From a virus, in the IMG/VR virus record IMGVR_UViG_3300000976_000011, positions 77,676-141,675 of that record: a stretch of DNA of 64,000 bases. One strand, given 5' to 3'. A model generated the notes under the pieces. It was not told where the DNA came from, made no database searches, and worked only from the letters and a program-made list of their open reading frames with translations. Shown one piece after another: positions 1 through 61,622 of this stretch. A program made the position numbers and the translations under genes. Every line of letters starts with the position of its first letter. The stretch's first letter is position 1.

Positions 1-95
1 TTTGTTCTGAGTCAGACTTTAAAGAAGAAACCGAATACTTTAAAGATATGGGTTTTGAAAAAGAATATGAAGTAAACGCAATTTGTGTAAATTAA
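1..95 (+). CDS. 3' end of a gene truncated by the window edge (…CSESDFKEETEYFKDMGFEKEYEVNAICVN*)
   Basis: Open frame from 3 to TAA at 93-95; stop overlaps the stop of the convergent GIY-YIG gene. Confidence 0.4.
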   Translation, partial: CSESDFKEETEYFKDMGFEKEYEVNAICVN

Positions 96-703
96 ATATG
101 TTTACAATTATTGAAGTGGTATCGTTTCATAAGATTTAAACCTCCAACTTTAGAGCAGTGAGGACAAGAAACTTTTTCTTTAGGACCAAACATTTTATCT
201 TTATTTTTTCTTGGTTTTCTCATTTTAGATAAAGTTTCTTCTGATTTCTTAGTACCATACTGTGGATGTTTTGAACCTGAAAAATCTGCATGATTTTTAG
301 ACATATTTCTTTTATGGTCCTCTGATTTGGGTACTCCATATAGTGGTGAAAGTTTTCCTTTATATTTTGATGCTGCAATCGATAACTTCTTTTTAGTTTC
401 GTTAGATGTAGGTTTTCTAGTATAAGTACTGGCTCCACCTTCTTTAAGATTATAATATAAAGAACTATTAACGGCGTCAACAGACTTTATATATGATTCC
501 TCTTTATTATTTAAATCTTGTAAGTCTTCACATATTTGAAGAATTTTCCTAGAAAAATGCTCTTTACCATATTTCCTAATAGCCTTATGTAATAAAGTTC
601 CTGAACCTAAATAATTATCGTCCAAATAGCCAAAATGTTGACCTATATACTTTTTCTTATTAATTAGATTTGTTGTTTCATAAACAAAGTGTATTTTAGA
701 CAT
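92..703 (-). mobile_element. GIY-YIG homing endonuclease (Seg-like) with NUMOD3-type repeats and C-terminal Cys/His knuckle
   Basis: FVYETTNLINKKKYIGQH…YLGSG…YYNL GIY-YIG motif; NPxYG/SEET repeats; CPHC…HFNNC. Confidence 0.9.
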
Positions 704-754
704 TAGATAAATAATTTTTAATTAATAACAATAATATTTATAGAGAGGTAAAAT

Positions 755-3035: not shown

Positions 3036-3866
3036 CTACTCATGAGACTTTTCGAATGTGAAACCTAAATCTCTAAGAGATTTACCTATAATAGAGTTAT
3101 CATAAGTTTTATTTAAGTAATTAGATTTCTGATAAAATGTTTTAGTGATAACTCTATTATTTTTACAAAAATCTCTTATTTGTCTAATACTTAATAGTCC
3201 GTTTGAAACATCTATAGATTTTAATGTTTCAAACTTTCCTATAGGGGTAATCCAGTAGCCTTTCCAAGAAGGATTGTTTTTATTAAGAATAGAATTCGAT
3301 ATATTATCCTTATGTTTCTGCGATAAAGAAGAACCTAATTTTGCTAAAGATATATTTTTACTGTGTTCTTTAGATCTAATTTTACCTTTTAATTTTTCTG
3401 AGAGTAATCTTTTAGTTTGTTCTGAAACTTTAGGTTTAGAAAATGCGCTTTTAGACATTTTCGCTTTACTTTCTTTACTATGTTTTCTACCATTCATCGG
3501 GCCTTTAGTTCCAAACCAATGATTGTTAGATCCTTTCATAGAATTTGAATGCTCGAGTCTATATTTTTCAAACAATCTGGAATTAATCTTATTTTTGTAT
3601 TTAGATAAATTACACATATACCATCTTGCTCTTACCATCTTTTCATGATCAAGTCCTTTTGTAAATTTAGGTAATAGAAGGTGAGCTATAAAGTGTTCTT
3701 TTGCCGTCAGCAAGACTAAATTAGTTTTATCATTAGAGCCATTACAAGATTTAGGTATTATATGGTGAGATTCATAATAAGCATCTTTCTTAGATCTTTT
3801 TAGTTTACTTCTAGAATTAATTAGGTTATAATACCAATTATAGTATTTGTTATTTAATATATCCAT
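3036..3866 (-). mobile_element. HNH homing endonuclease (Mob-like) with NUMOD3-type repeats
   Basis: YYESHHIIPKS…NLVLLTAKEHFIAHLLL; HSKESKAKMS repeats. Confidence 0.9.
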
Positions 3867-3884
3867 ATAACTATTTATAAAATT

Positions 3885-4648
3885 ATGAATAAAAATGTAA
3901 AAAAAAAAAAGTTTGTTTAATTAGTGATATTCACGTAGAATTCTATGATAAAAATGCTTTATTAGATCTTATACCATCAGAAGGCTATGACATACTCTTG
4001 CTCCTAGGCGACATCAGTGAGAATCCTAAATTCATACAAAGAATCTGTGATAAAATTACTAATAAGCCTATAATTTATGTATTAGGAAATCATGAATATT
4101 ATGGTAATCCGCATAGCGGCATGGCGTCGACAGAATCTAATTATCATGATATTGAAAAGATATACGATAACCTTACAGTATTTTCTTCTAAATTTAATTA
4201 TATTGATATAGATGGAACAATCTTCTTAGGTTCAGTAAATTGGCCTGATATACCAGTAAATGATCAATTTAACATTTCTAGAAGTATAAATGATTTTAGA
4301 ACTGGAAATATTTCTATCGCTGAAAGCGTATATTCTAAAATACAATTTGATAAAGATATAGAAGCATATTTAGATTTAACGTATGATGAGAATAAAACTT
4401 ATATAGGTTTAACTCATTTTATTCCAGGAGAATTTGCCTGTGCACCTCAATGGAAGGGACATAGTTTAAATTGTTATTTTGTTTCTCCTATTAATTTTGA
4501 TATATTTTCTCGATGTAATTATTGGCTATTTGGCCACGGTCATGATCCTATAAATACTATTGTAGAAGGATGTAATTTTATATCAAATCCACTGGGTTAT
4601 CCACATGAAGGAAATCATGAATGGCAACCTTTAATTATAGAACTTTAG
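3885..4648 (+). CDS. calcineurin-like metallophosphoesterase; reading frame interrupted at an A12 run (3899-3910)
   Basis: SDIH (3923-3934), LGDI, GNHE, THF, GHGH, NPLGY motifs; motif I lies upstream of the track's start at 3998 and is out of frame with ATG 3885. Confidence 0.85.
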
Positions 4649-5755: not shown

Positions 5756-5976
5756 TTAATGAAGAAGATTTCGACATAGAAATAAAAAAATTATTTGATG
5801 AAATTGTTTTCTCGGATAGTTTACAAAACAAACTAAATAGTTTAAAATTCTATATCTCAATAGAGCCTGATTTTGAAATGGATTCATTAAAGGTATCATT
5901 AGACTATTGCAATAAATATAATTTCTACAGAAGGATCTGTTTCTACTTTCAAGGTAAGGTGCCTTACCTGATTTGA
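5752..5976 (+). CDS. hypothetical protein
   Basis: ATGA-coupled ORF. Confidence 0.5.
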   Translation: MINEEDFDIEIKKLFDEIVFSDSLQNKLNSLKFYISIEPDFEMDSLKVSLDYCNKYNFYRRICFYFQGKVPYLI

Positions 5977-6716
5977 GGACAATTATCGAAATGATAAGGT
6001 TTCATATTAGCTAAAGATCCAGTTTTGCCGCAATTTGGGCATAGACCTCTAGGCCTAATTTTTCCTTTAAGAGCTTTAGATACTGCATCTTTATGACTCT
6101 GAGATATTTTTTTACCCTTATTGGCTTTCGAAATTTTAGCTTTTACAACATTTGAGTGATCTTTTCCATAAAATGGATTATTTTCGCCTGAGTAATTTTG
6201 AGAATTATATGTAGCTCTCCTAATAGAAGCTTCTTTTTTTCTTTTGTCGGACCAAGAATCGGACATTTTGTCTCTAGTTTCTTGAGAATAAATATGACCG
6301 TACATAGGGTTGTTTTCTGGCTCAGCAAGACGTTTCTTGGTACTCTTTGATAATTTGTCTCTAGTTTCTTGAGAAATTATTCTATTTGACATACTCACAG
6401 AAAACTTTTTCTTTATTTTATCATAAAGAAAAGAATTGATTTTATTTTTGCTGGTTGATCCCATCATAACTATAGCAAATAACATAGATTTTTTATCCTT
6501 TCCTTTTAAAAATCTAGGTAATAATAAATGAGCTATAAAGTGTTCTCTAGCAGTAAGAAGTACTAAATTATCGGGTCGATTAGATCCACCTAAACTTCTA
6601 GGAATTATGTGATGTTGTTCGAAGTAATTTTTAGAGTTTTTAACTCTATTTAGTTTACTTCTTGATTCCATTAAGTTATAATACCACGTGGAATATTTGT
6701 TTTTAATTTCGTTCAT
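5964..6716 (-). mobile_element. HNH homing endonuclease with NUMOD3 repeats and C-terminal Cys/His knuckle
   Basis: FEQHHIIPRSLGGS…NLVLLTAREHFIAHLLL; NPMYG/NPFYGKDHS; CPNC…HFDNC. Confidence 0.9.
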
Positions 6717-6739
6717 AAATATATTTATAGGAGTTCAAT

Positions 6740-7666
6740 ATTCAATTTTTAGATTACAGAGGCTATATCATGGCCCAAATATTTGGCTATTCAAAATTTA
6801 TACAAGATGGTGTTTTTGATGATGATTTCTTCATTGAAAGATTTTTAGTTAATGTTGGAAAACTTTCTAGAAAATACAGAAAATATGGAAAATTAGTTAT
6901 CGCGGCTGACTCAAATAAGAGAAAATATTGGCGCACTTTAGAATTTGAACATTATAAAGCTGGAAGATATAAGGATGATAGTGCTAAATTATCTCCTAAA
7001 GATTTAGAAACTAGACAAAAGTTAAGAGAGATACCTAATAAATTAGAAAAGGTTCTTAAAGATAATTTTCCATTTTATTTTATTAGATCTATAAATGCCG
7101 AAGCTGATGATGTAATTGCTACAATAATCGCTCACAAATTCGATGAGAAACATTTAATATTATCTGCTGATGGTGACTTTGTACAACTTCAAAGATATAA
7201 TGTTGATCAGTGGGATACAACTAGAAATAGATGGTTGAAATCACAAACACCTGAATTAGATTTAACAGAGAAAATATTTAGAGGAGATACTGGAGACGGT
7301 ATACCAAACATTCTATCAGATGATGACACTTTAGTTATTGAAGCAAAACGCCAAGGTAGAATGACTCAGAAAAAATTAAAGTATCTATTTAACTTAGACT
7401 TTGATAAAATGAAATCAGATATCGAATACTATATGTCACTATCTGAAAACAAGGAGAAATCAATGGAAGATTTCGACAATGGAAAACTTGTAAAGCGATA
7501 TTTCCAAAATAAAAAGCTTATTGATTTATCAGAAACTCCTTTAGAAGTAAAGGAAGATATTTTAAATCAATATCGAGAATATGGAGAATTACCAAACCGA
7601 GTTATGAAATATTGTATGAAAAACAAATATGCTCATATATTCGAACACCTTAACCTTTTTAATTAA
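6740..7666 (+). CDS. rnh: RNase H / 5'-3' exonuclease (T4 rnh-like); probable ATT start at 6740
   Basis: YWR…YKAGR, EADDVIA, LILSADGDFVQL, GDTGDGIPNI motifs; first catalytic Asp (FLDY) lies upstream of ATG 6770. Confidence 0.9.
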   Translation: MQFLDYRGYIMAQIFGYSKFIQDGVFDDDFFIERFLVNVGKLSRKYRKYGKLVIAADSNKRKYWRTLEFEHYKAGRYKDDSAKLSPKDLETRQKLREIPNKLEKVLKDNFPFYFIRSINAEADDVIATIIAHKFDEKHLILSADGDFVQLQRYNVDQWDTTRNRWLKSQTPELDLTEKIFRGDTGDGIPNILSDDDTLVIEAKRQGRMTQKKLKYLFNLDFDKMKSDIEYYMSLSENKEKSMEDFDNGKLVKRYFQNKKLIDLSETPLEVKEDILNQYREYGELPNRVMKYCMKNKYAHIFEHLNLFN

Positions 7667-10157: not shown

Positions 10158-10186
10158 TGTACATAAATGCCTATTTGGTATATAAT
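10158..10186 (+). promoter_or_regulatory. sigma70-type early promoter
   Basis: TGTACA-17-TATAAT; flanked by inverted repeat CCTATTTG/CAAATAGG. Confidence 0.6.
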
Positions 10187-10396: not shown

Positions 10397-10424
10397 TTTA
10401 CATTTTGTCTCAATAGTATATAAT
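10396..10424 (+). promoter_or_regulatory. T4-like early promoter
   Basis: GTTTACA…TATAAT followed by conserved leader CAGTTAAACAAATA. Confidence 0.75.
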
Positions 10425-11273: not shown

Positions 11274-11603
11274 ATGCCTTGTACAATATATGAAGATAGA
11301 GCAAAAACAATTGTTGAACCTAGTAGAAACTCATTAGATAAAATTAAAGTTAAAAATTTAGAAGCGTGTTTGTGCGCCGTTTTAAGAGAACTAAATAGAA
11401 GAAATCTATTAACAGATATTTTAGAATCTTCTTCTATTAAGGGTAAAGTTGATGTGCAATCATGGTGGGAAGAGCACAGAAAAGCTGATATCAATAGAAT
11501 CTCAAAAGTTATTGCTGATTTCTCTGAAGATGATAAAGAACTCACTCACATTACTGACGAAGAAGTAATAAAGCATCTTAATACTACTTCTAGATACACA
11601 TAA
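11274..11603 (+). CDS. conserved phage hypothetical protein
   Basis: MPC…LCAVL…WWEEHRKAD pattern seen in many phage ORFs. Confidence 0.6.
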   Translation: MPCTIYEDRAKTIVEPSRNSLDKIKVKNLEACLCAVLRELNRRNLLTDILESSSIKGKVDVQSWWEEHRKADINRISKVIADFSEDDKELTHITDEEVIKHLNTTSRYT

Positions 11604-11854
11604 TGGATCGTAGAGGATTTTTAAAGAATATTATGATTGCGGGAGTTGCTCCCGCTTTCATAAAAAGCGAATCTTTAATGGGTTTATATGTACCTGAACC
11701 AGAGATTATATTTTTAAATGCAAAACACGGAACAGAGCTTATATTTTTAAATGCAAATAGAGGAACAGAAATAATAGTGCATAAAGCTCGAATGGATTAT
11801 GATACAGGCATTATTCGGTGTCCATATATTCCACAAACGAAATTAATAACTTAA
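11603..11854 (+). CDS. Tat-signal protein carrying a gp23 C-terminal-like peptide
   Basis: MDRRGFLK Tat motif; KARMDYDTGIIRCPYI matches this window's gp23 KGAEKYDAGIFWCPYV. Confidence 0.7.
   Translation: MDRRGFLKNIMIAGVAPAFIKSESLMGLYVPEPEIIFLNAKHGTELIFLNANRGTEIIVHKARMDYDTGIIRCPYIPQTKLIT
11701..11766 (+). repeat. 33-bp tandem duplication (EIIFLNAKHGT / ELIFLNANRGT)
   Basis: Two near-identical 33-nt units at 11701 and 11734. Confidence 0.85.
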
Positions 11855-11866
11855 CAGGAGTAAAAT

Positions 11867-12277
11867 ATGTTTGAATCAATTGGTAATTTTTTAGATAATG
11901 TATGGGGTGGATTATTTTCATTTAATCCTTTAGATCCTTGGGCCGCAGGCTTTTATTTTTTACCATTAGTTATTTGTGCTATCTCGTATATTTTTGAAAC
12001 AATATCAGATTTAGCAATAGATGCTCGTCATTTAAAAGAATATAATAATGGTGATCATAGTTATTATGATCCGAAAACTACAGTTGGATTAATTCTAGGT
12101 AGAGCCTTTTTAACTGTACTACCAGCTGTTAATATATTTGTAGCTATCTTTTCTAGACTTGGACAAATTTTAGATTGGCTAGGAAAAACATTTAATATAG
12201 CTATTATAGGAAAGAAGCAATCCAGATCATTTGAAGAAACTCAAAAAGTAAAAGCAGCAAAAAGAAATGCATCGTAG
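11867..12277 (+). CDS. membrane protein
   Basis: AGGAG RBS; two hydrophobic segments. Confidence 0.65.
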   Translation: MFESIGNFLDNVWGGLFSFNPLDPWAAGFYFLPLVICAISYIFETISDLAIDARHLKEYNNGDHSYYDPKTTVGLILGRAFLTVLPAVNIFVAIFSRLGQILDWLGKTFNIAIIGKKQSRSFEETQKVKAAKRNAS

Positions 12278-12314
12278 AGGATTTTTAAAGAATATTATGA
12301 AAGCGAATCTTTAA
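12267..12314 (+). pseudogene. frameshifted duplicate of the Tat signal of 11603 (MHRRGFLKNIMKANL*)
   Basis: Near-identical to 11603-11697 apart from a 28-nt deletion. Confidence 0.75.
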
Positions 12315-12511
12315 TGGGTTTATTTGTACCTGAATCTAAAATACAATCCTTATATAAACCCATATTAATATCTATGCCAAGAAAAATATATCCTCTTTCA
12401 ATTATTGAAGATGTAAATGAAGTTAAACCTGTCATAAACGACAAAGAAAAACTTAAAGAAATGAATGAAAATATAAACGATAATTTAGGTATAATTATTG
12501 AATTTGTATAA
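12314..12511 (+). CDS. small protein carrying a gp23 Gol-region-like peptide
   Basis: YKPILISMPRKIYPLSIIEDVNEVKPV vs gp23 YDPVLISMTRRAMPSLIAFDMAGVQPM (12/27 identical). Confidence 0.7.
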   Translation: MGLFVPESKIQSLYKPILISMPRKIYPLSIIEDVNEVKPVINDKEKLKEMNENINDNLGIIIEFV

Positions 12512-12543: not shown

Positions 12544-13119
12544 ATGAAACGGATAGCAATTAGTATAGGACATTATCCAGAGAAATCTGGTGCAAGATTT
12601 GAGGATCTTATTGAACATGAAATAGCTGGCGAATGGGTCGACAAGATTTTAGACACTTTCGACGATATATATGACTTCGATTGTGAAGAACCAATATTTG
12701 AATTTATTCCTGTTCCAGTAGGCACCCTTAGAGAAAAAGTAAAGTGGATTAATAGTCATGATTTTGATTATGCTATTGAAATGCATTTTAATTCAGTTGG
12801 TGGTGCTATAGTATCAGGAGCAGAAACCCTTTATATGCCTGGTAGCTATAGAGGTAGACAATTTGCATCTATAGTTCAAGATTACACAATAGTTCCTTTA
12901 AATATTAGAGATCGCGGTATTAAAGAAGGACTTTACTGGTCTTCTAGAGAAAGAACAAATACTCCTTTATATTTTTTAAGAAGAACAAATTGTCCTGCTA
13001 TTATTATGGAACCAGAGTTTCTTCAATCATATAAAAGGACTATAAATAATCGTAAGATAGTAGATTTTTGCTACGCTTTAATCGATGCTCTAGAAACAGT
13101 TGTTCTAGATGAAATTTAA
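12544..13119 (+). CDS. N-acetylmuramoyl-L-alanine amidase (Amidase_3), probable endolysin
   Basis: IAISIGH…E…EMHFNS…SGAE…LYFLRRTNCPAIIMEPEF. Confidence 0.9.
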   Translation: MKRIAISIGHYPEKSGARFEDLIEHEIAGEWVDKILDTFDDIYDFDCEEPIFEFIPVPVGTLREKVKWINSHDFDYAIEMHFNSVGGAIVSGAETLYMPGSYRGRQFASIVQDYTIVPLNIRDRGIKEGLYWSSRERTNTPLYFLRRTNCPAIIMEPEFLQSYKRTINNRKIVDFCYALIDALETVVLDEI

Positions 13120-13719: not shown

Positions 13720-13750
13720 AATTAAAAGGAGCTTATTGCTCCTTTTAATT
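13720..13750. terminator. intrinsic terminator (bidirectional-type)
   Basis: AATTAAAAGGAGC-TTATT-GCTCCTTTTAATT. Confidence 0.85.
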
Positions 13751-14362: not shown

Positions 14363-14623
14363 ATGAGAAATTCTGGCTTTACTTTGATAGATCTAATGAT
14401 TGTTATATCCATTATTGGAATTTTAGCTGCGGTTGATTTATACTTTCTTTATCAAGATTGGAAAAATCAAAAATTAAGCGGAGAAAATAGCCCAAATATA
14501 ATTAAAATGGATAGTATATCTGACATTACAAAAGAAGAAAGATTTGCTCAATTATTAGTTGAAAAGCATAGAATTGAAAAGGAAATAGAGAGGTTAAGTA
14601 AATTAGAGAAGCTTGTAAAGTAG
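14363..14623 (+). CDS. type IV prepilin-like protein (class III signal peptide)
   Basis: MRNSG|FTLIDLMIVISIIGILAAV. Confidence 0.8.
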   Translation: MRNSGFTLIDLMIVISIIGILAAVDLYFLYQDWKNQKLSGENSPNIIKMDSISDITKEERFAQLLVEKHRIEKEIERLSKLEKLVK

Positions 14624-16804: not shown

Positions 16805-17425
16805 TTACTTAAATTTACAGTTAGAAAAATGATATCTTTTCATATTGCCAGTGCCGCCTTCTTTTCTACAATAAGGGCATTTAATTATTTCTTGAGGCCC
16901 TTTAGATTTTCCCTTACCACTTTTAGACATTTTCTTTCTGGTTTCCTTAGTGTGAGTTTTACCATAAAAAGGATTACCTGAACCCATTCTGTTTTTAGAT
17001 TGATTTAATTTTCTTTCTTCGGAATGTGGAATGTTTGATAAATGGTGCTCTCCTTTCTTTATTTTAAAGCTCGGATGATTCACGCCGCTTATAGACTTCA
17101 CAAATTTTAATCTTGTTTCTTCATATAAGTTAGATTTATATTTTTTATTAAAATTAGACATCATGTTCCAAGCTGCTAGCATCTTAAAAAGAGATTTACC
17201 TTTTGTAAACTTTGTTAACAAAATATGTGCTATATAATGTTCCCTAGCTGAAAGTAGTACTAGGTTCTCAGGATCATCTGAACCGTCCATAGATCTAGGT
17301 ATTATATGGTGTGATTCATAATAAATTTCTGCAGTTTTAACTCGATTAAGCTTACTTCTAGATTCCATTAAGTTATAATACCATTTGGAATATTTGTTAA
17401 TAATAAAATCTCTATGAATAAACAT
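16805..17425 (-). mobile_element. HNH homing endonuclease with NUMOD3 repeats and C-terminal Cys/His knuckle
   Basis: YYESHHIIPRS…NLVLLSAREHYIAHILL; NPFYGKTHTKETRKKMS; CPYC…HFSNC. Confidence 0.9.
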
Positions 17426-17435
17426 ATTTGCTCCT

Positions 17436-37380: not shown

Positions 37381-37412
37381 GATAAATATTACTAAACATA
37401 TAAGAAAATAAG

Positions 37413-40301
37413 ATGGCATTTGATAGAACCTATAATTTTGATGTTCGAACTATTGTTAATAGTGAATGGGATATTGTTGATAGGGCTGGCGCCGTTCAAG
37501 GTAACTTGTCTAACGCCAACACTAATGGTGATATATGTTTCGAGACAAATGGAACAACATCAAATGGAACTGGGCCTACAGGCCCAGACACAGGATTTGC
37601 TGGATATATTGTTACAGAAGCATCAGGTCCAGTAGCATCAAGCACATGGTCAGTATCTACTGTAGCTGCTGAATCATTACTAGCTACTGAAGAAATAAAT
37701 TTTGAATTACTCAATAGTAAAGACGCTGATGCCGGAGCTCAGTTAATTATAGAGTATTCGACAAGTGCGAATCCAACCACTACTACTAATAATGATTGGA
37801 CGGTAATTACAACAATAGCCGCAACTGATGGAAATAATGCTTGGGTACTTGATTCAGGTTCTGTTAGTAACGTCGGTAGTACTTCAAATTTAAGATTTAG
37901 AATTAGATGGGATACACCTAATAGCTTTTCTAATGACATAGGTCTACAACAGTTTAGAATATTTACTACATCCACTGTAGTAGGAAATCCTCCAACCATA
38001 AACATCCCTGGTGATAATCCTCTTAATTTAACTGAGGGTGATGTTTATGTTGCTCCTATTGTAACTGCTAGTGATGTCGAAGACGGTGATTTAACAAGTT
38101 CAATAGTGATAACAGGTGATACTGTTGACACTGCTGTCACTGGTACTTATAGCGTAACATATACTGTTACTGATATAGACAATAATACTACCCAAGAAAT
38201 ATTATTTGTTAATGTATTAGCTCCTTCTCCATATCAGTTCATTCCAGCTAGTGACGTTTTCGTTAATTTTCCTACAGGCCCAAGTAATTGGTCCTTAAGT
38301 GGCAATATTATAACTCAAAGCGGCCAAGGAACTTTAGAAGGTTTAGAGGCTATAGCTGGAGTAAATGTCTGTGAAGTTTTAGGTAAAACTGTATACGATG
38401 TTGCTTCAGGTAATAGGCAATTAAATATCACGGGAACACTTTTCATAGACCCAGAAGTAGAAATGTTATTAATGGGTTATGATGGAACTACCGAATTATT
38501 TAATGTAATTAATAACGGAATCCTTGTTCTTGGTAGATTTATAGATCAATTAGGATTCCGTAGACATTCTATTGGTACTGCTATAGATTTTGAAAATACT
38601 CAAACGGTTGGTTCATTTATTGATAGAGTAAGTTTTGAAGATAATTCCACGCTACATTGGTTTGGTGGAACTGTTGCTCTAGAAGGCGGAAAGTTCGGAT
38701 TTTATGGCGACGATGTGACTGTTAGAATTTATAGTTTAGAGGCCAAACTCCTATTTAGAACTCAAAATGAACAGAATCAAATTAGACAAGAAACCGATGA
38801 TTTCATATCAGAATCTTTTGATTTCATAAATGGTGATTTCACTGTAGTAGGTACCCAACAACAACTAAATGGGTATAGACCTACTCATTGTACTGGCTCT
38901 TTGGCTTGGTCCAGCGCGACACCAAATGAAGATGTTTTTATTAGAAACTATGGAGGAGGTGGGCGCGGTAATATTGTTGATGGAAAACATTGGCAAGGCC
39001 AACGAGGCTATTTAATTAATTCAGAAAGCGGATCTAATTTGAATTCTGGACCTCATATAGTAGGTAATAATAGTTCTTTTGGCTCATATAGAATTGATCA
39101 AGAAATTCAATTTAATATACAAGATTCAAATAATCAACCAGTTTCTAATGCTTTAATTTTCATGCGGGATACTGATAACGGCGACCGCAGAATATATAAC
39201 GAAGAAGGAAACTTATTTGATGAATCGGGTGATCGAACATATGTTGAATTAACTAATACAGGCGGTAGTTCATCTGTTTTTCCAGTTAGAATAGCTAATC
39301 AGTTTGCAGCTAGAAATTTTGGCAGTGCAAACGATTCTATTAACACTGGTAGGTACGCCTGGGACCGCCGGGGCAAATCAAATGATACAAGTGATAGATT
39401 TGATTTTCATATTTGGGCTTATGGATTCAGATATCAATTAGTTCCAGATGTGGTTTTAAAGGGAGCAGGTGGTACTCAGATTAATATAACTTTACCAGTA
39501 CAACCTGAATTTACCGAACCTAATGAATCAGTGGCATTAAATTTTACTGAGTTTAATGTAGATGATTTATATGATAGATCAAGAGCCTGGAAATCAATTC
39601 CTGGAAATGAAGAGATACCGGCGGCTGATAGACCGTTAATAGATATTTCAGGAAGTAATCTGGATCTTAAAGAATATACTTTAGATTTTGGTCCTGGTTT
39701 TGATATTAATGGAACAACAATAACATTTAATCCTAAAAATAGTCTGATAGGGAATCAATTCACTGGAATTATTGCTAATGGAAATATTTTAACATTGAGA
39801 AATCAGGCGGATTTCGATCTTATATCTAATATGTCCTTTCCAAGCGGTACTATATTAGTTGATGCTGGTTCAGCCGATGCGGATTTCACTGTTGATTCGG
39901 CTAATATTAATGATATCATTAATATAGGAACAGGTATAGTCAATATCAATACTATTGGCGCCGCGTCTGTAACAACGAGCGAGCCTGGTCAAACTGCAGG
40001 CTTAATTAATATTGTAAATACTATTCAAATAACTATTAATGAATTATTGGGTAACGGCGAAGAAATACGAATTTTTAATAATACAGGAACACTACTAGAA
40101 CCAGTCGCTGGTGTTTTGGTTGCTGGAATAGAGAATAATTTTTCATCTAGTTTTAATTTTGAAGCGTCAGCGAATCAAGGAGTTATAATAGTAATAATAG
40201 ATAATGTATTACGTCCTATATTTAGACCTTTTATTGTACCTACAACTGATAGTAGTATTCAAATACCTCTAAATAGTAATGGTGTCTATCTAAACCCATA
40301 A
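37413..40301 (+). CDS. adhesin-like virion protein (MAM-like + DUF5011-like Ig + beta-rich domains)
   Basis: TTSNGTGP…GYIVTEAS MAM-like motif; PPTINIPGDNPL…TASDVEDGDLT…GTYSVTYTVTD Ig motif; ends GVYLNP. Confidence 0.7.
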   Translation: MAFDRTYNFDVRTIVNSEWDIVDRAGAVQGNLSNANTNGDICFETNGTTSNGTGPTGPDTGFAGYIVTEASGPVASSTWSVSTVAAESLLATEEINFELLNSKDADAGAQLIIEYSTSANPTTTTNNDWTVITTIAATDGNNAWVLDSGSVSNVGSTSNLRFRIRWDTPNSFSNDIGLQQFRIFTTSTVVGNPPTINIPGDNPLNLTEGDVYVAPIVTASDVEDGDLTSSIVITGDTVDTAVTGTYSVTYTVTDIDNNTTQEILFVNVLAPSPYQFIPASDVFVNFPTGPSNWSLSGNIITQSGQGTLEGLEAIAGVNVCEVLGKTVYDVASGNRQLNITGTLFIDPEVEMLLMGYDGTTELFNVINNGILVLGRFIDQLGFRRHSIGTAIDFENTQTVGSFIDRVSFEDNSTLHWFGGTVALEGGKFGFYGDDVTVRIYSLEAKLLFRTQNEQNQIRQETDDFISESFDFINGDFTVVGTQQQLNGYRPTHCTGSLAWSSATPNEDVFIRNYGGGGRGNIVDGKHWQGQRGYLINSESGSNLNSGPHIVGNNSSFGSYRIDQEIQFNIQDSNNQPVSNALIFMRDTDNGDRRIYNEEGNLFDESGDRTYVELTNTGGSSSVFPVRIANQFAARNFGSANDSINTGRYAWDRRGKSNDTSDRFDFHIWAYGFRYQLVPDVVLKGAGGTQINITLPVQPEFTEPNESVALNFTEFNVDDLYDRSRAWKSIPGNEEIPAADRPLIDISGSNLDLKEYTLDFGPGFDINGTTITFNPKNSLIGNQFTGIIANGNILTLRNQADFDLISNMSFPSGTILVDAGSADADFTVDSANINDIINIGTGIVNINTIGAASVTTSEPGQTAGLINIVNTIQITINELLGNGEEIRIFNNTGTLLEPVAGVLVAGIENNFSSSFNFEASANQGVIIVIIDNVLRPIFRPFIVPTTDSSIQIPLNSNGVYLNP

Positions 40302-47106: not shown

Positions 47107-47769
47107 CTATAATTCGTTAAACCAGAAACCTAAGTCTCTGAATGTCTTACCTATTATGTCTTCCTTAGTACCTATACTTTTTAAATAATTAGAATGACCA
47201 TATGATTTTGAATTTATAACTCTATCAGCATCTTTGCACCATTTATGTATAGTGATAAATGGTAGCATCGGTATATTTTGCTCTGCTTCTAATGATGTAA
47301 TAAATGTTCCGTAGGGAGTTCGATAATTACCTTTATATTTAGGGTGCTTCTTGCCTATTTTAGCCTTAGACATTTTATCTTTAGTTTCAATTGAAATTTT
47401 CTTACCAAAATTGTAGTGATTCTTACCTTTCATTCTTAATGACATATAAATAGAGTAATCTTGGCGCAGACTTTGATATATTTTAGAATTAATTCTAACG
47501 TTTTCGTCTCTATTTGACATAAACATATAAGCACATAACATCTTATAATAATATTCATCCTTTGTAAATTTAATTAGAAGCATATGAGCAATAAAGTGTT
47601 CCCTAGCAGTAAGTAAAACTAGGTTATCGGGCTCATCTGAACCACCTAAAGACTTAGGAGTTATATGGTGAGATTCATAATAAACTTCTTTAGACTTTCT
47701 TCTGTCGAGATTTTTACGTGAGCTACATAGATTAAAATAATGAAAATAGTATTTGTTCTTAATAAACAT
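47107..47769 (-). mobile_element. HNH homing endonuclease
   Basis: YYESHHITPKSLGGS…NLVLLTAREHFIAHMLL; C-terminus shared with 3036-3866. Confidence 0.9.
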
Positions 47770-47779
47770 CTTAGCCCCT

Positions 47780-60404: not shown

Positions 60405-61622
60405 ATGAAAGAAATTAGTCAACTTTTAAAAGAGTGGAAGCCTATTCTTGAAGCTGAAGGTGTTGATGCTATCGAGAACTCTGAAAAAGCTCAAGCAGTC
60501 GCTCAAATCTTAGAGAATACTCACACGTCTGCCAAAGGATATAATCCAACAGTAGCTCTTAATGAGGATGAAGGTAACGTTACAGGTAATGTAGACGGTT
60601 ATGACCCAGTTCTTATTTCTATGACAAGACGCGCTATGCCGTCACTTATCGCATTCGATATGGCTGGTGTTCAACCTATGTCTGGGCCTACTGGTAAAGT
60701 ATTCGCTATGCGTGCTTTTTACGGTAATGATCCTGATACAGGAACTGAAGCATTTTATCAAACTGCTCCTGATACTTCTCACACAGGTAAATATACAACT
60801 GCTCAAGCTGAAAATCTTGGTACAGTTCAACAAGTAGATAGTACTGTTGCTGGTGTTAATCCGGTTGCAGCTGCTCAACCATGGCCTGAAATGACTATGA
60901 AAGTTGATTCAGTTACTGTTGAAGCTCAAAGTCGTGCACTTAAAGCTGTATACACTGATGAATTAATGGAAGATCTTAAAAATCTTCACGGCTTAAATGC
61001 TGATTCAGAAATTTCAAGAATTTTAGTTGGAGAAATCCGTGCTGAAATGAATCGCGAGTTAACTGAGACTATCAACGCACAAGCTGTTGTAGGTGCTCAA
61101 GGAACAACTACTCCTGGTACATTCGATCTAAATGCTGATACTACTGGTCGTTGGTCTGTAGAGAAGCATAAAGAACTTATGACTTTCTTATATCGCGAGT
61201 CTGCAGTTGTTGCTGCACAAACTCGTCGTGGTCAAGCTAACTTTATTATCTGTTCTGCAGATATTGCTGCTACTTTAATTGAATCTTCATTACTAGATTC
61301 AAGCTTTACTTCTCAAAACCTATCATTCGATGGTATTGGAGTAACATTTGCTGGAGTATTAGCTGGTCGTTACAAACTATATATTGATGCTTATGCTTCA
61401 GAAAACTACATCACTCTAGGCTATAAAGGCGCAGAGAAATATGATGCTGGTATTTTCTGGTGCCCTTACGTTGGTATTGAAAGACGTCAAACTGTTCAAG
61501 ACACTAACTTCCAACCTCAGATTGGTTACAAAACTCGTTATGGTATTACTCATAACCCATTAACTTCTGGAGCTGCACAGTCAAATGTTTACTTCCGTCG
61601 TTTCTTAGTAACAAGTCTATAA
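60405..61622 (+). CDS. 23: major capsid protein gp23
   Basis: LISMTRRAMPSLIAFDMAGVQPMSGPTG…VEAQSRALKA…DAGIFWCPY…FQPQIGYKTRYG. Confidence 0.97.
   Translation: MKEISQLLKEWKPILEAEGVDAIENSEKAQAVAQILENTHTSAKGYNPTVALNEDEGNVTGNVDGYDPVLISMTRRAMPSLIAFDMAGVQPMSGPTGKVFAMRAFYGNDPDTGTEAFYQTAPDTSHTGKYTTAQAENLGTVQQVDSTVAGVNPVAAAQPWPEMTMKVDSVTVEAQSRALKAVYTDELMEDLKNLHGLNADSEISRILVGEIRAEMNRELTETINAQAVVGAQGTTTPGTFDLNADTTGRWSVEKHKELMTFLYRESAVVAAQTRRGQANFIICSADIAATLIESSLLDSSFTSQNLSFDGIGVTFAGVLAGRYKLYIDAYASENYITLGYKGAEKYDAGIFWCPYVGIERRQTVQDTNFQPQIGYKTRYGITHNPLTSGAAQSNVYFRRFLVTSL

Follow-up and report, generated by a model that had tools for sequence, protein, structure and literature searches.

The last 64,000 nucleotides (the window hereafter) of the IMG/VR virus record IMGVR_UViG_3300000976_000011, which has 141,675 bp and terminal repeats, come from a distant, uncultured T4-like phage and contain two small plus-strand genes that each carry a diverged piece resembling gp23, the major capsid protein. 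The first, open reading frame (ORF) A (11603-11854; 83 amino acids (aa); P0001), encodes a leader of the twin-arginine translocation (Tat) type, a linker, an 11-residue tandem repeat and a piece similar to the C-terminal part of gp23, as recognized by a leader hidden Markov model (HMM), a gp23 HMM and hhalign. The second, ORF B (12314-12511; 65 aa; P0002), is leaderless and was assigned by the gp23 HMM and hhalign a piece of the gp23 N-arm, which includes the Gol region. Both were compared with the true gp23 of this phage, encoded at 60405-61622 on the plus strand (405 aa; P0003; Pfam Gp23 E-value 1e-103; PHROG major head protein), to which the nearest GenBank phages, Stenotrophomonas DLP_6, Pelagibacter HTVC008M and the Melnitz phages, show an identity of only ~45%. 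Judged from the sequence comparisons described below, ORFs A and B very probably belong to a family of phage proteins in which a shared leader precedes capsid-derived tails, and the locus holds one intact and one broken representative of a widespread class of phage genes not described before.

The leader module of ORF A (copy 1, 11603-11698 on the plus strand, residues 1-32) was delimited from the sequence and the family profile and consists of an RRGFLK motif, a weakly hydrophobic core, a basic residue and an E-S-L-M linker; its start codon and the stop codon of the preceding gene share the sequence TAATG. At the DNA level this module is duplicated (11602-11700 and 12266-12336), with two substitutions in all over the shared leader codons and two blocks, of 27 and 24 nucleotides (nt), that are each identical between the copies, bearing out the proposal of the initial annotation that both genes arose from one duplicated 5' module. 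Outside the module, ORF A and ORF B have no DNA similarity. A near-identical module on genes with unrelated remainders points to a duplication that is recent, or to copies that were kept alike through recombination. Repeat comparison also revealed a tandem 33-nt duplication inside ORF A (11700-11765, plus strand), the units of which are 85% identical.

Comparison of the two copies at the DNA level showed that copy 2 (12266-12336, plus strand) is broken by a 28-nt deletion. The missing nucleotides correspond to 11636-11663 of copy 1, which hold a hairpin and the codons of the hydrophobic core; in copy 1 the hairpin (11631-11663, plus strand; -19.5 kcal/mol, z-score -4.0) has a 6-bp outer stem and a 7-bp G+C-rich inner stem. 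Because the loss shifts the frame of copy 2, ORF B is without a twin-arginine leader in the present sequence. The remainder of the copy encodes just 15 residues (12267-12314), its TAA stop codon overlapping the ATG start codon of ORF B, and the start methionine of ORF B corresponds to Met26 of ORF A. The deletion may be an assembly artefact. The claim that both genes bear a Tat signal was therefore upheld for ORF A and for the ancestry of ORF B, and failed for ORF B as it stands, owing to the 28-nt deletion and frameshift.

Capsid similarity of three small genes

When gp23 was compared with 739 six-frame open segments of the window, ORF B ranked first and ORF A second after gp23 itself. An HMM built from gp23 and 139 diverse relatives (140 capsid proteins) and run with all filters off gave 10.8 bits for ORF B (E-value 0.007) and 10.5 bits for ORF A (E-value 0.009), with the next segment of the window at 2.3 bits. 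Applied to all 2,340 segments of the genome, this HMM retrieved ORFs A and B together with ORF C (9.7 bits; next segment 3 bits), a third small and leaderless gene of 87 aa (P0155) on the minus strand outside the window (genome 4783-5046; L008:4783-5046). ORF C is one of a series of small, closely packed genes on the minus strand, with an RtcB-like gene nearby. The Pfam Gp23 model (PF07068) detected ORF C independently (E-value 0.014); in a genome search it recovered ORF C alone among the pieces and so lacks the sensitivity that a survey needs.

In 40 residue shuffles of all genome segments, the best score averaged 4.2 ± 1.4 bits with a maximum of 9.3, and the third-best score did not exceed 4.1 bits in any of the 40; reversed sequences reached 2.4 bits at best. 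The best non-capsid scores in four T4-like control genomes were 6.6 (HTVC008M), 6.0 (Melnitz-3), 4.2 (T4) and 4.5 bits (DLP_6), and none of these genomes contained comparable capsid pieces by the gp23 HMM. Because shuffled sequences, reversed sequences and control genomes all score far lower, the capsid similarity of ORFs A, B and C is real and beyond chance. A fortuitous resemblance is hardly credible, for although each match is short (23-37 profile columns) and lies under every curated threshold, three matches stand near 10 bits, a level (9.7) that none of the whole-genome shuffles reached, and two of the three are neighbouring paralogues.

The initial annotation had suggested the gp23 similarity of ORFs A and B and a profile search as a check on it; the gp23-family HMM and hhalign, the latter run against a 72-sequence gp23 alignment, both detect the two genes. 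In hhalign, residues 34-79 of ORF A aligned with gp23 312-359 (85% probability), residues 13-41 of ORF B with gp23 65-93 (72%) and residues 26-86 of ORF C with gp23 167-229 (31%), and BLASTP against individual gp23 proteins lengthened the alignments to 39-76 residues. The identities first reported were likewise found where they had been placed, with 12 of 27 positions, ungapped, between ORF B residues 14-40 and gp23 66-92, and 8 of 17 between ORF A residues 60-76 and gp23 340-356.

The pieces come from three non-overlapping parts of gp23. ORF A matches the C-terminal strand region (T4 gp23 410-457), and the core of its piece (residues 60-82; 11780-11848, plus strand) corresponds by HMM, BLASTP and alignment mapping to gp23 337-359 and T4 gp23 435-457. 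ORF C matches the region of the E-loop and spine helix (T4 254-316), with which its residues 18-87 align (up to 72 residues to individual gp23 proteins). The piece of ORF B (residues 13-41; 12350-12436, plus strand), placed by hhalign, maps through the family alignment to the N-arm at T4 gp23 90-118, so that its earlier identification as the Gol region holds by position. The Gol stretch of T4 gp23 we take to be residues 93-122, and by eye ORF B is identical to it at 8 of 25 positions. Gol is a 29-residue region within the first quarter of gp23, is the most conserved part of the protein and the trigger of Lit, and binds EF-Tu; the free Gol peptide bound to EF-Tu activates Lit (PMC3014915).

Over aligned columns, the pieces have a mean identity of 26-34% to any gp23. 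The gp23 of this phage ranks only 76th, 14th and 70th of 140 by identity to the three pieces, which rejects a recent copy of the resident capsid gene; the earlier description of the pieces as fragments of the phage's own gp23 has to be given up in this sense, as they are equally far from all gp23 proteins. An origin from the gp24-type vertex protein was rejected as well, the pieces showing no preference for T4 gp24, and so was the idea that the leader, with its RRG motif and hydrophobic stretch, copies the conserved RRG segment of gp23, since hhalign of the 33-residue module against the gp23 alignment gave nothing. Full-length membership of Gp23 (PF07068, roughly 376 positions, 24.4 bits) does not apply, as the pieces span 23-61 columns at ~10 bits, and hmmscan with Pfam gave no Gp23 match for ORF A or ORF B. 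The pieces derive from the gp23 family without being capsid proteins.

The leader family and its tails

Direct searches with ORF A yielded no close homologue, two IMG/VR matches being chance, and the ESM Atlas gave sub-threshold leads only (viral clusters and Tat proteins at 0.80-0.86). The leader family was found after a DNA pattern search with a Tat motif and a Gol motif, which returned chance matches only to the combined pattern and luckily exposed an 82-aa phage ORF with a similar leader. A second leader relative came from IMG/VR, and a profile of these leaders retrieved 59 metagenomic small proteins with E-values down to 1e-20. Family members have 80-164 aa and tails that are mostly unrelated to one another. 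Their leader consensus runs from Met and Asn or Asp through RRGFL, a core of about AAGVAPA and a basic residue to E/S-S/N-L-M, with a proline a few residues later; R3, R4 and F6 are invariant across 60 family members. An HMM of the 59 leaders, built without ORF A, scored ORF A at 55.3 bits (E-value 4e-16) among the six frames of the genome, and detected nothing else in this genome and nothing in the four T4-like control genomes. ORF A thus shows the leader and linker match, the small size (83 aa) and the virion-piece tail of the family; a gp23-type tail was found in no other member. On leader similarity, the family occurs in T4-like, P22-like and other phages.

By motif and hydropathy, the leader is to be classed as a Tat-type signal. 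Residues 2-8 of ORF A read D-R-R-G-F-L-K, in agreement with the Tat motif S/T-R-R-x-F-L-K, the core spans 12 residues and no 19-residue window exceeds a Kyte-Doolittle hydropathy of 1.5; a possible signal peptidase site fits the sequence at I-K-S in ORF A and at V-R-A in the family consensus. With the Tat signal peptides modelled by PF10518 and TIGR01409, the leader shares RRxFLK at residues 3-8 and a short, weakly hydrophobic core in which Ala, Gly and Pro are frequent; a basic residue ahead of a putative small-x-small site would be a further point in common. It differs from them in being shorter and far more conserved within the family, with conservation that continues into the linker past the likely cleavage site. 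Pfam TAT_signal (PF10518) matches 50 of the 60 members, at 12.5-17.4 bits among the matches listed (cut-off 22.7).

The tails of the relatives likewise appear, from their database matches, to resemble pieces of virion proteins. In the P22-like contig L069, the member P0195 is located after ninG and before the terminase gene, and its residues 53-101 are 46% identical (E-value 1e-11) to residues 3-56 of the P22-type coat protein of the same phage, whose gene lies 6 kb downstream. The N-terminus of a P22-type coat protein is carried by 9 of the 59 family members. All functionally annotated PHROG matches across the family are head or tail proteins, and pieces of LamG, pectate-lyase/tailspike and endosialidase N-terminal type were picked up in the tails by Pfam, for the most part under its threshold.

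One close pair of members allowed selection to be compared along the protein. In the leader, 10 synonymous differences stand against 2 non-synonymous ones, with a ratio of non-synonymous to synonymous substitution rates (dN/dS) of 0.04; in the tail, which in this single pair is of a different kind, dN/dS is 0.38. In this pair of relatives, purifying selection acts strongly on the leader, and the constraint on the tail is weaker. As the leader changes are mostly synonymous, the leader is conserved as a peptide, and this conservation holds in phages whose G+C content ranges from 33% to ~60% and in front of unrelated tails.

The hairpin in the leader codons was also considered as a selected nucleic-acid element, such as an integron-like site or an attenuator, and rejected. 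The codons for A-G-V-A-P-A force 5 of the 7 pairs of its inner stem, the two wobble pairs are retained in only 2 of 4 relatives that have the same core, and the excess of synonymous changes in the close pair opposes such an element too. As the wobbles are so poorly kept, the hairpin would be largely a by-product of the A-G-V-A-P-A codons and is better seen as the probable cause of the 28-nt deletion.

Two other contigs show members in context. The 2-kb contig L074 has, at 76-767, two overlapping tandem members whose leaders are of one kind and whose tails are unrelated, as in the window, and the first of these leaders is closer to that of ORF A than any other (~68% over 37 residues). In L073 (1916-3794), the member P0160 lies two genes downstream of genes with Tad3 (Thoeris anti-defence) and DruA domains, in a row of small accessory genes that includes one NUMOD3 gene. 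Searches of one genome per bacterial species returned two loci, both in metagenome-assembled genomes and one of them an ordinary Tat substrate, and we found no paper describing this mini-protein family. Its absence from GenBank phages at the sensitivity used, and its near-absence from the bacterial genomes, may explain the lack of papers.

The gene row and other partial gene copies

ORF A, ORF136 and ORF B are, in that order, three closely packed genes on the plus strand. They are preceded by a gene for an Rv2179c-like exoribonuclease and an ORF of 109 aa, and followed by an Amidase_3 gene and a gene for a helix-hairpin-helix protein. ORF136 (11867-12277, plus strand; P0004), between the two leader copies, encodes two hydrophobic segments and matched no known family. 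It has a basic C-terminal end and lies directly upstream of the Amidase_3 gene (12544-13119), which has no hydrophobic N-terminal segment; from this arrangement, the two could be a holin-endolysin pair interleaved with both leader genes. Searches for homologues of ORF136 and the amidase, and for DNA matches to the region, found none.

Two sigma-70-like promoters were predicted on the plus strand upstream of the row that holds ORFs A and B, at 10397-10424 (11 of 12 consensus positions) and 10158-10186, both by consensus match only, and a terminator-like hairpin predicted at 13720-13750 on the same strand is the probable end of an early gene row. The late-promoter motif TATAAATA was not found on the plus strand between 4549 and 13041. 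As the genes sit behind sigma-70-like promoters and lack this late motif, the row is probably expressed early, before the capsid protein. Further along the window, an 86-aa ORF (14363-14623, plus strand) has a type IV prepilin-like N-terminus, with a glycine followed by F-T-L-I-D and a hydrophobic helix.

The genome also holds a large family of 13 paralogous open frames, short fragments included; the two that were scanned proved to be HNH-NUMOD3 homing-type endonucleases. So many copies are unusual in a phage of 142 kb. Five lie on the minus strand of the window (95-721, 3039-3920, 5967-6734, 16808-17434 and 47110-47778) and eight elsewhere in the genome. Beside the gene at 5967-6734, a 25-codon frame on the plus strand (window 6675-6749) duplicates, at 84% identity, the N-terminal 19 residues of a protein of 846 aa whose gene lies at genome 21215-23752, and looks like a target-flank duplication from endonuclease insertion. 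Outside the window, a 75-aa ORF at genome 52657-52881 copies 56 residues (43%) of a 965-aa protein with Ig-like domains encoded at window 37404-40298. It has a DNA-identical stretch nearby and is another case of a small gene derived from part of a large and probably structural protein.

Possible roles of the leader-tail proteins

A member of the family consists of a strongly conserved Tat-type leader of ~22 residues, a conserved linker of ~10 residues and a diverged piece of a virion protein as its tail. ORF A is the intact member here, and its tail copies the C-terminal strand region of gp23. In ORF B, the leader was destroyed by deletion of the hairpin that its own codons form, and the protein, if still made, would arise by re-initiation at the TAATG overlap and stay cytoplasmic. 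The core of the initial annotation, paralogous genes joining a Tat-type leader to capsid pieces, is thus retained as an architecture, one that recurs in unrelated phages, and has to be dropped for the Gol-like gene, leaderless here. The most economical reading of this architecture appears to be mimicry, with each tail a conserved contact peptide of a virion protein. The leader would direct the protein to the Tat machinery, hence to the inner membrane or periplasm, and the tail would present its peptide outside the virion and compete for whatever binds that peptide. Capsid N-arms are contact points for assembly, and the N-arm of the P22 coat binds scaffolding protein. In its general form, which includes more specific versions taken up below, we hold mimicry to be possible and favour it tentatively.

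Several observations weigh against it. Orthologues of ORFs A, B and C were not detectable in our searches, and selection on these three genes is therefore not measurable; the tail constraint comes from the one pair described above. Two members used as queries did not find the family in 50,697 GenBank phage records, so that no cultured model is at hand. Each capsid match is individually weak (~10 bits) as well as short, and the hhalign span of ORF A crosses the recent 33-nt internal duplication, which possibly inflates it. ORF A reaches no Tat-signal profile (PF10518, TIGR01409), and the relatives listed stay under the Pfam cut-off. ORF B no longer has its leader and is possibly decaying, and a capsid peptide bound for the periplasm has no obvious partner there.

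Two known phage systems invite comparison with the proposed mimics. The internal proteins IPI-IPIII of T4 are unrelated small proteins that share an N-terminal capsid-targeting sequence and are encoded at a variable locus. As in that system, paralogous small genes carry a short conserved N-terminal targeting module on differing bodies, and the module is shuffled by recombination. Here, however, the module is Tat-type instead of a capsid-targeting sequence of ~10 residues with a prohead-protease site, and the bodies are virion pieces; the L/I-x-E site of the prohead protease is not conserved in the family linker, and the shared module has 32 residues and ends in V-P-E. Nothing suggests that the products of ORFs A and B are packaged into the head. 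Ocr, a DNA mimic, is an example of phage counter-defence by molecular mimicry, and if mimicry is right, the present proteins would resemble it as small early phage proteins imitating a molecule that the host recognizes. The imitated objects would differ, being the phage's own virion peptides placed on an export signal; no described example of virion-peptide mimics joined to an export signal was found in the literature.

That the capsid-like stretches are functionless open frames, left over from old partial duplications or from recombination with other phages and with ORF B already broken, is unlikely, and fits ORF B and ORF C better than the family as a whole. The 13 homing-endonuclease paralogues and the other partial gene copies in the genome agree with such debris, as do the lost leader of ORF B, the lack of orthologues of the three ORFs and the fact that no true gp23 is as diverged as these pieces. 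Against it, the three frames, 65-87 codons long, have remained open and show gene-like codon use although the genome is A+T-rich and their identity to gp23 is only 26-43%. The design of a leader followed by a piece of the phage's own capsid recurs in a P22-like phage with a defined start at coat residue 3, the leader is strongly and the tail somewhat constrained in the pair examined, and four other T4-like genomes are without such pieces.

A more specific version of mimicry, proposed in the initial annotation, makes the proteins immune decoys: capsid look-alikes made early would occupy capsid sensors (Lit-like, CapRel-like or TIR-type), and the Tat leader would export the bound, folded sensor. 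Lit, CapRel and some TIR systems read phage capsid proteins, and Tat co-export of a partner that has no signal of its own is established for some bacterial enzymes. The probable early position of the genes, the member next to Tad3- and DruA-domain genes, and an ORF B piece that covers T4 gp23 90-118, the region described as the Lit trigger (PMC3014915), are consistent with this version. The Gol/Lit/EF-Tu system of prophage e14 resembles it in that the ORF B tail aligns with the same, most conserved, stretch of T4 gp23 and in that a short free Gol peptide is biologically active alone (PMC3014915). It differs in that Gol is part of the full capsid protein and not a separate gene, and in that free Gol turns the defence on. 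Since the free peptide with EF-Tu activates Lit (PMC3014915), a mimic risks triggering the defence, and a look-alike must therefore bind without activating, or remove the sensor. The Gol-like gene has moreover lost its leader here, the tail-fibre, tailspike and lectin-like tails of other members would each need a matching sensor, and no sensor is known for the host of this phage. We consider immune decoys a decidedly weak prospect, somewhat below that of debris.

Equally doubtful is a role on the envelope side, in which exported pieces would bind proteins ejected by a superinfecting phage and so exclude it, or report superinfection to the lysis machinery in the manner of T4 RI. The leader points to the envelope, the N-arms of this capsid fold face the interior, where ejected proteins are stored, and the two genes lie on either side of the gene for a two-segment membrane protein and upstream of the Amidase_3 gene, these being the candidate holin-endolysin pair. 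ORF136, however, matches no holin family, other family members are not adjacent to lysis genes, and no partner is known.

A further variant of mimicry is an export-coupled decoy of wider scope. Its tail would capture a cytoplasmic partner, which could be a capsid-sensing defence protein, EF-Tu or a chaperone, or the scaffold of a rival phage, and the leader would then remove the complex from the cytoplasm or pin it at the membrane. We give this variant little weight, slightly less than the preceding two; if true, it would make the family a dedicated class of early mini-proteins in several unrelated phage lineages, with no described precedent.

Lower still in our estimate stands the possibility that the leader is the active part, engaging the Tat receptor or signal peptidase of the host or blocking it, the tails being interchangeable, poorly folded cargo. 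It would account for a leader conservation far above that of ordinary Tat signals, maintained over the wide range of G+C content and at a dN/dS of 0.04, but it leaves the repeated virion origin of the tails and their defined starts, such as coat residue 3, unexplained, and the tails are under some constraint.

Returning to mimicry in its general form and to the family as such, the class could represent either an unrecognized layer of phage-host or phage-phage conflict, or a new control of assembly or lysis. It is easily recognized by its leader and would offer a direct handle on what senses or binds virion peptides. More generally, the orphan short ORFs of phage early regions can be decoded by comparison with the phage's own structural genes.

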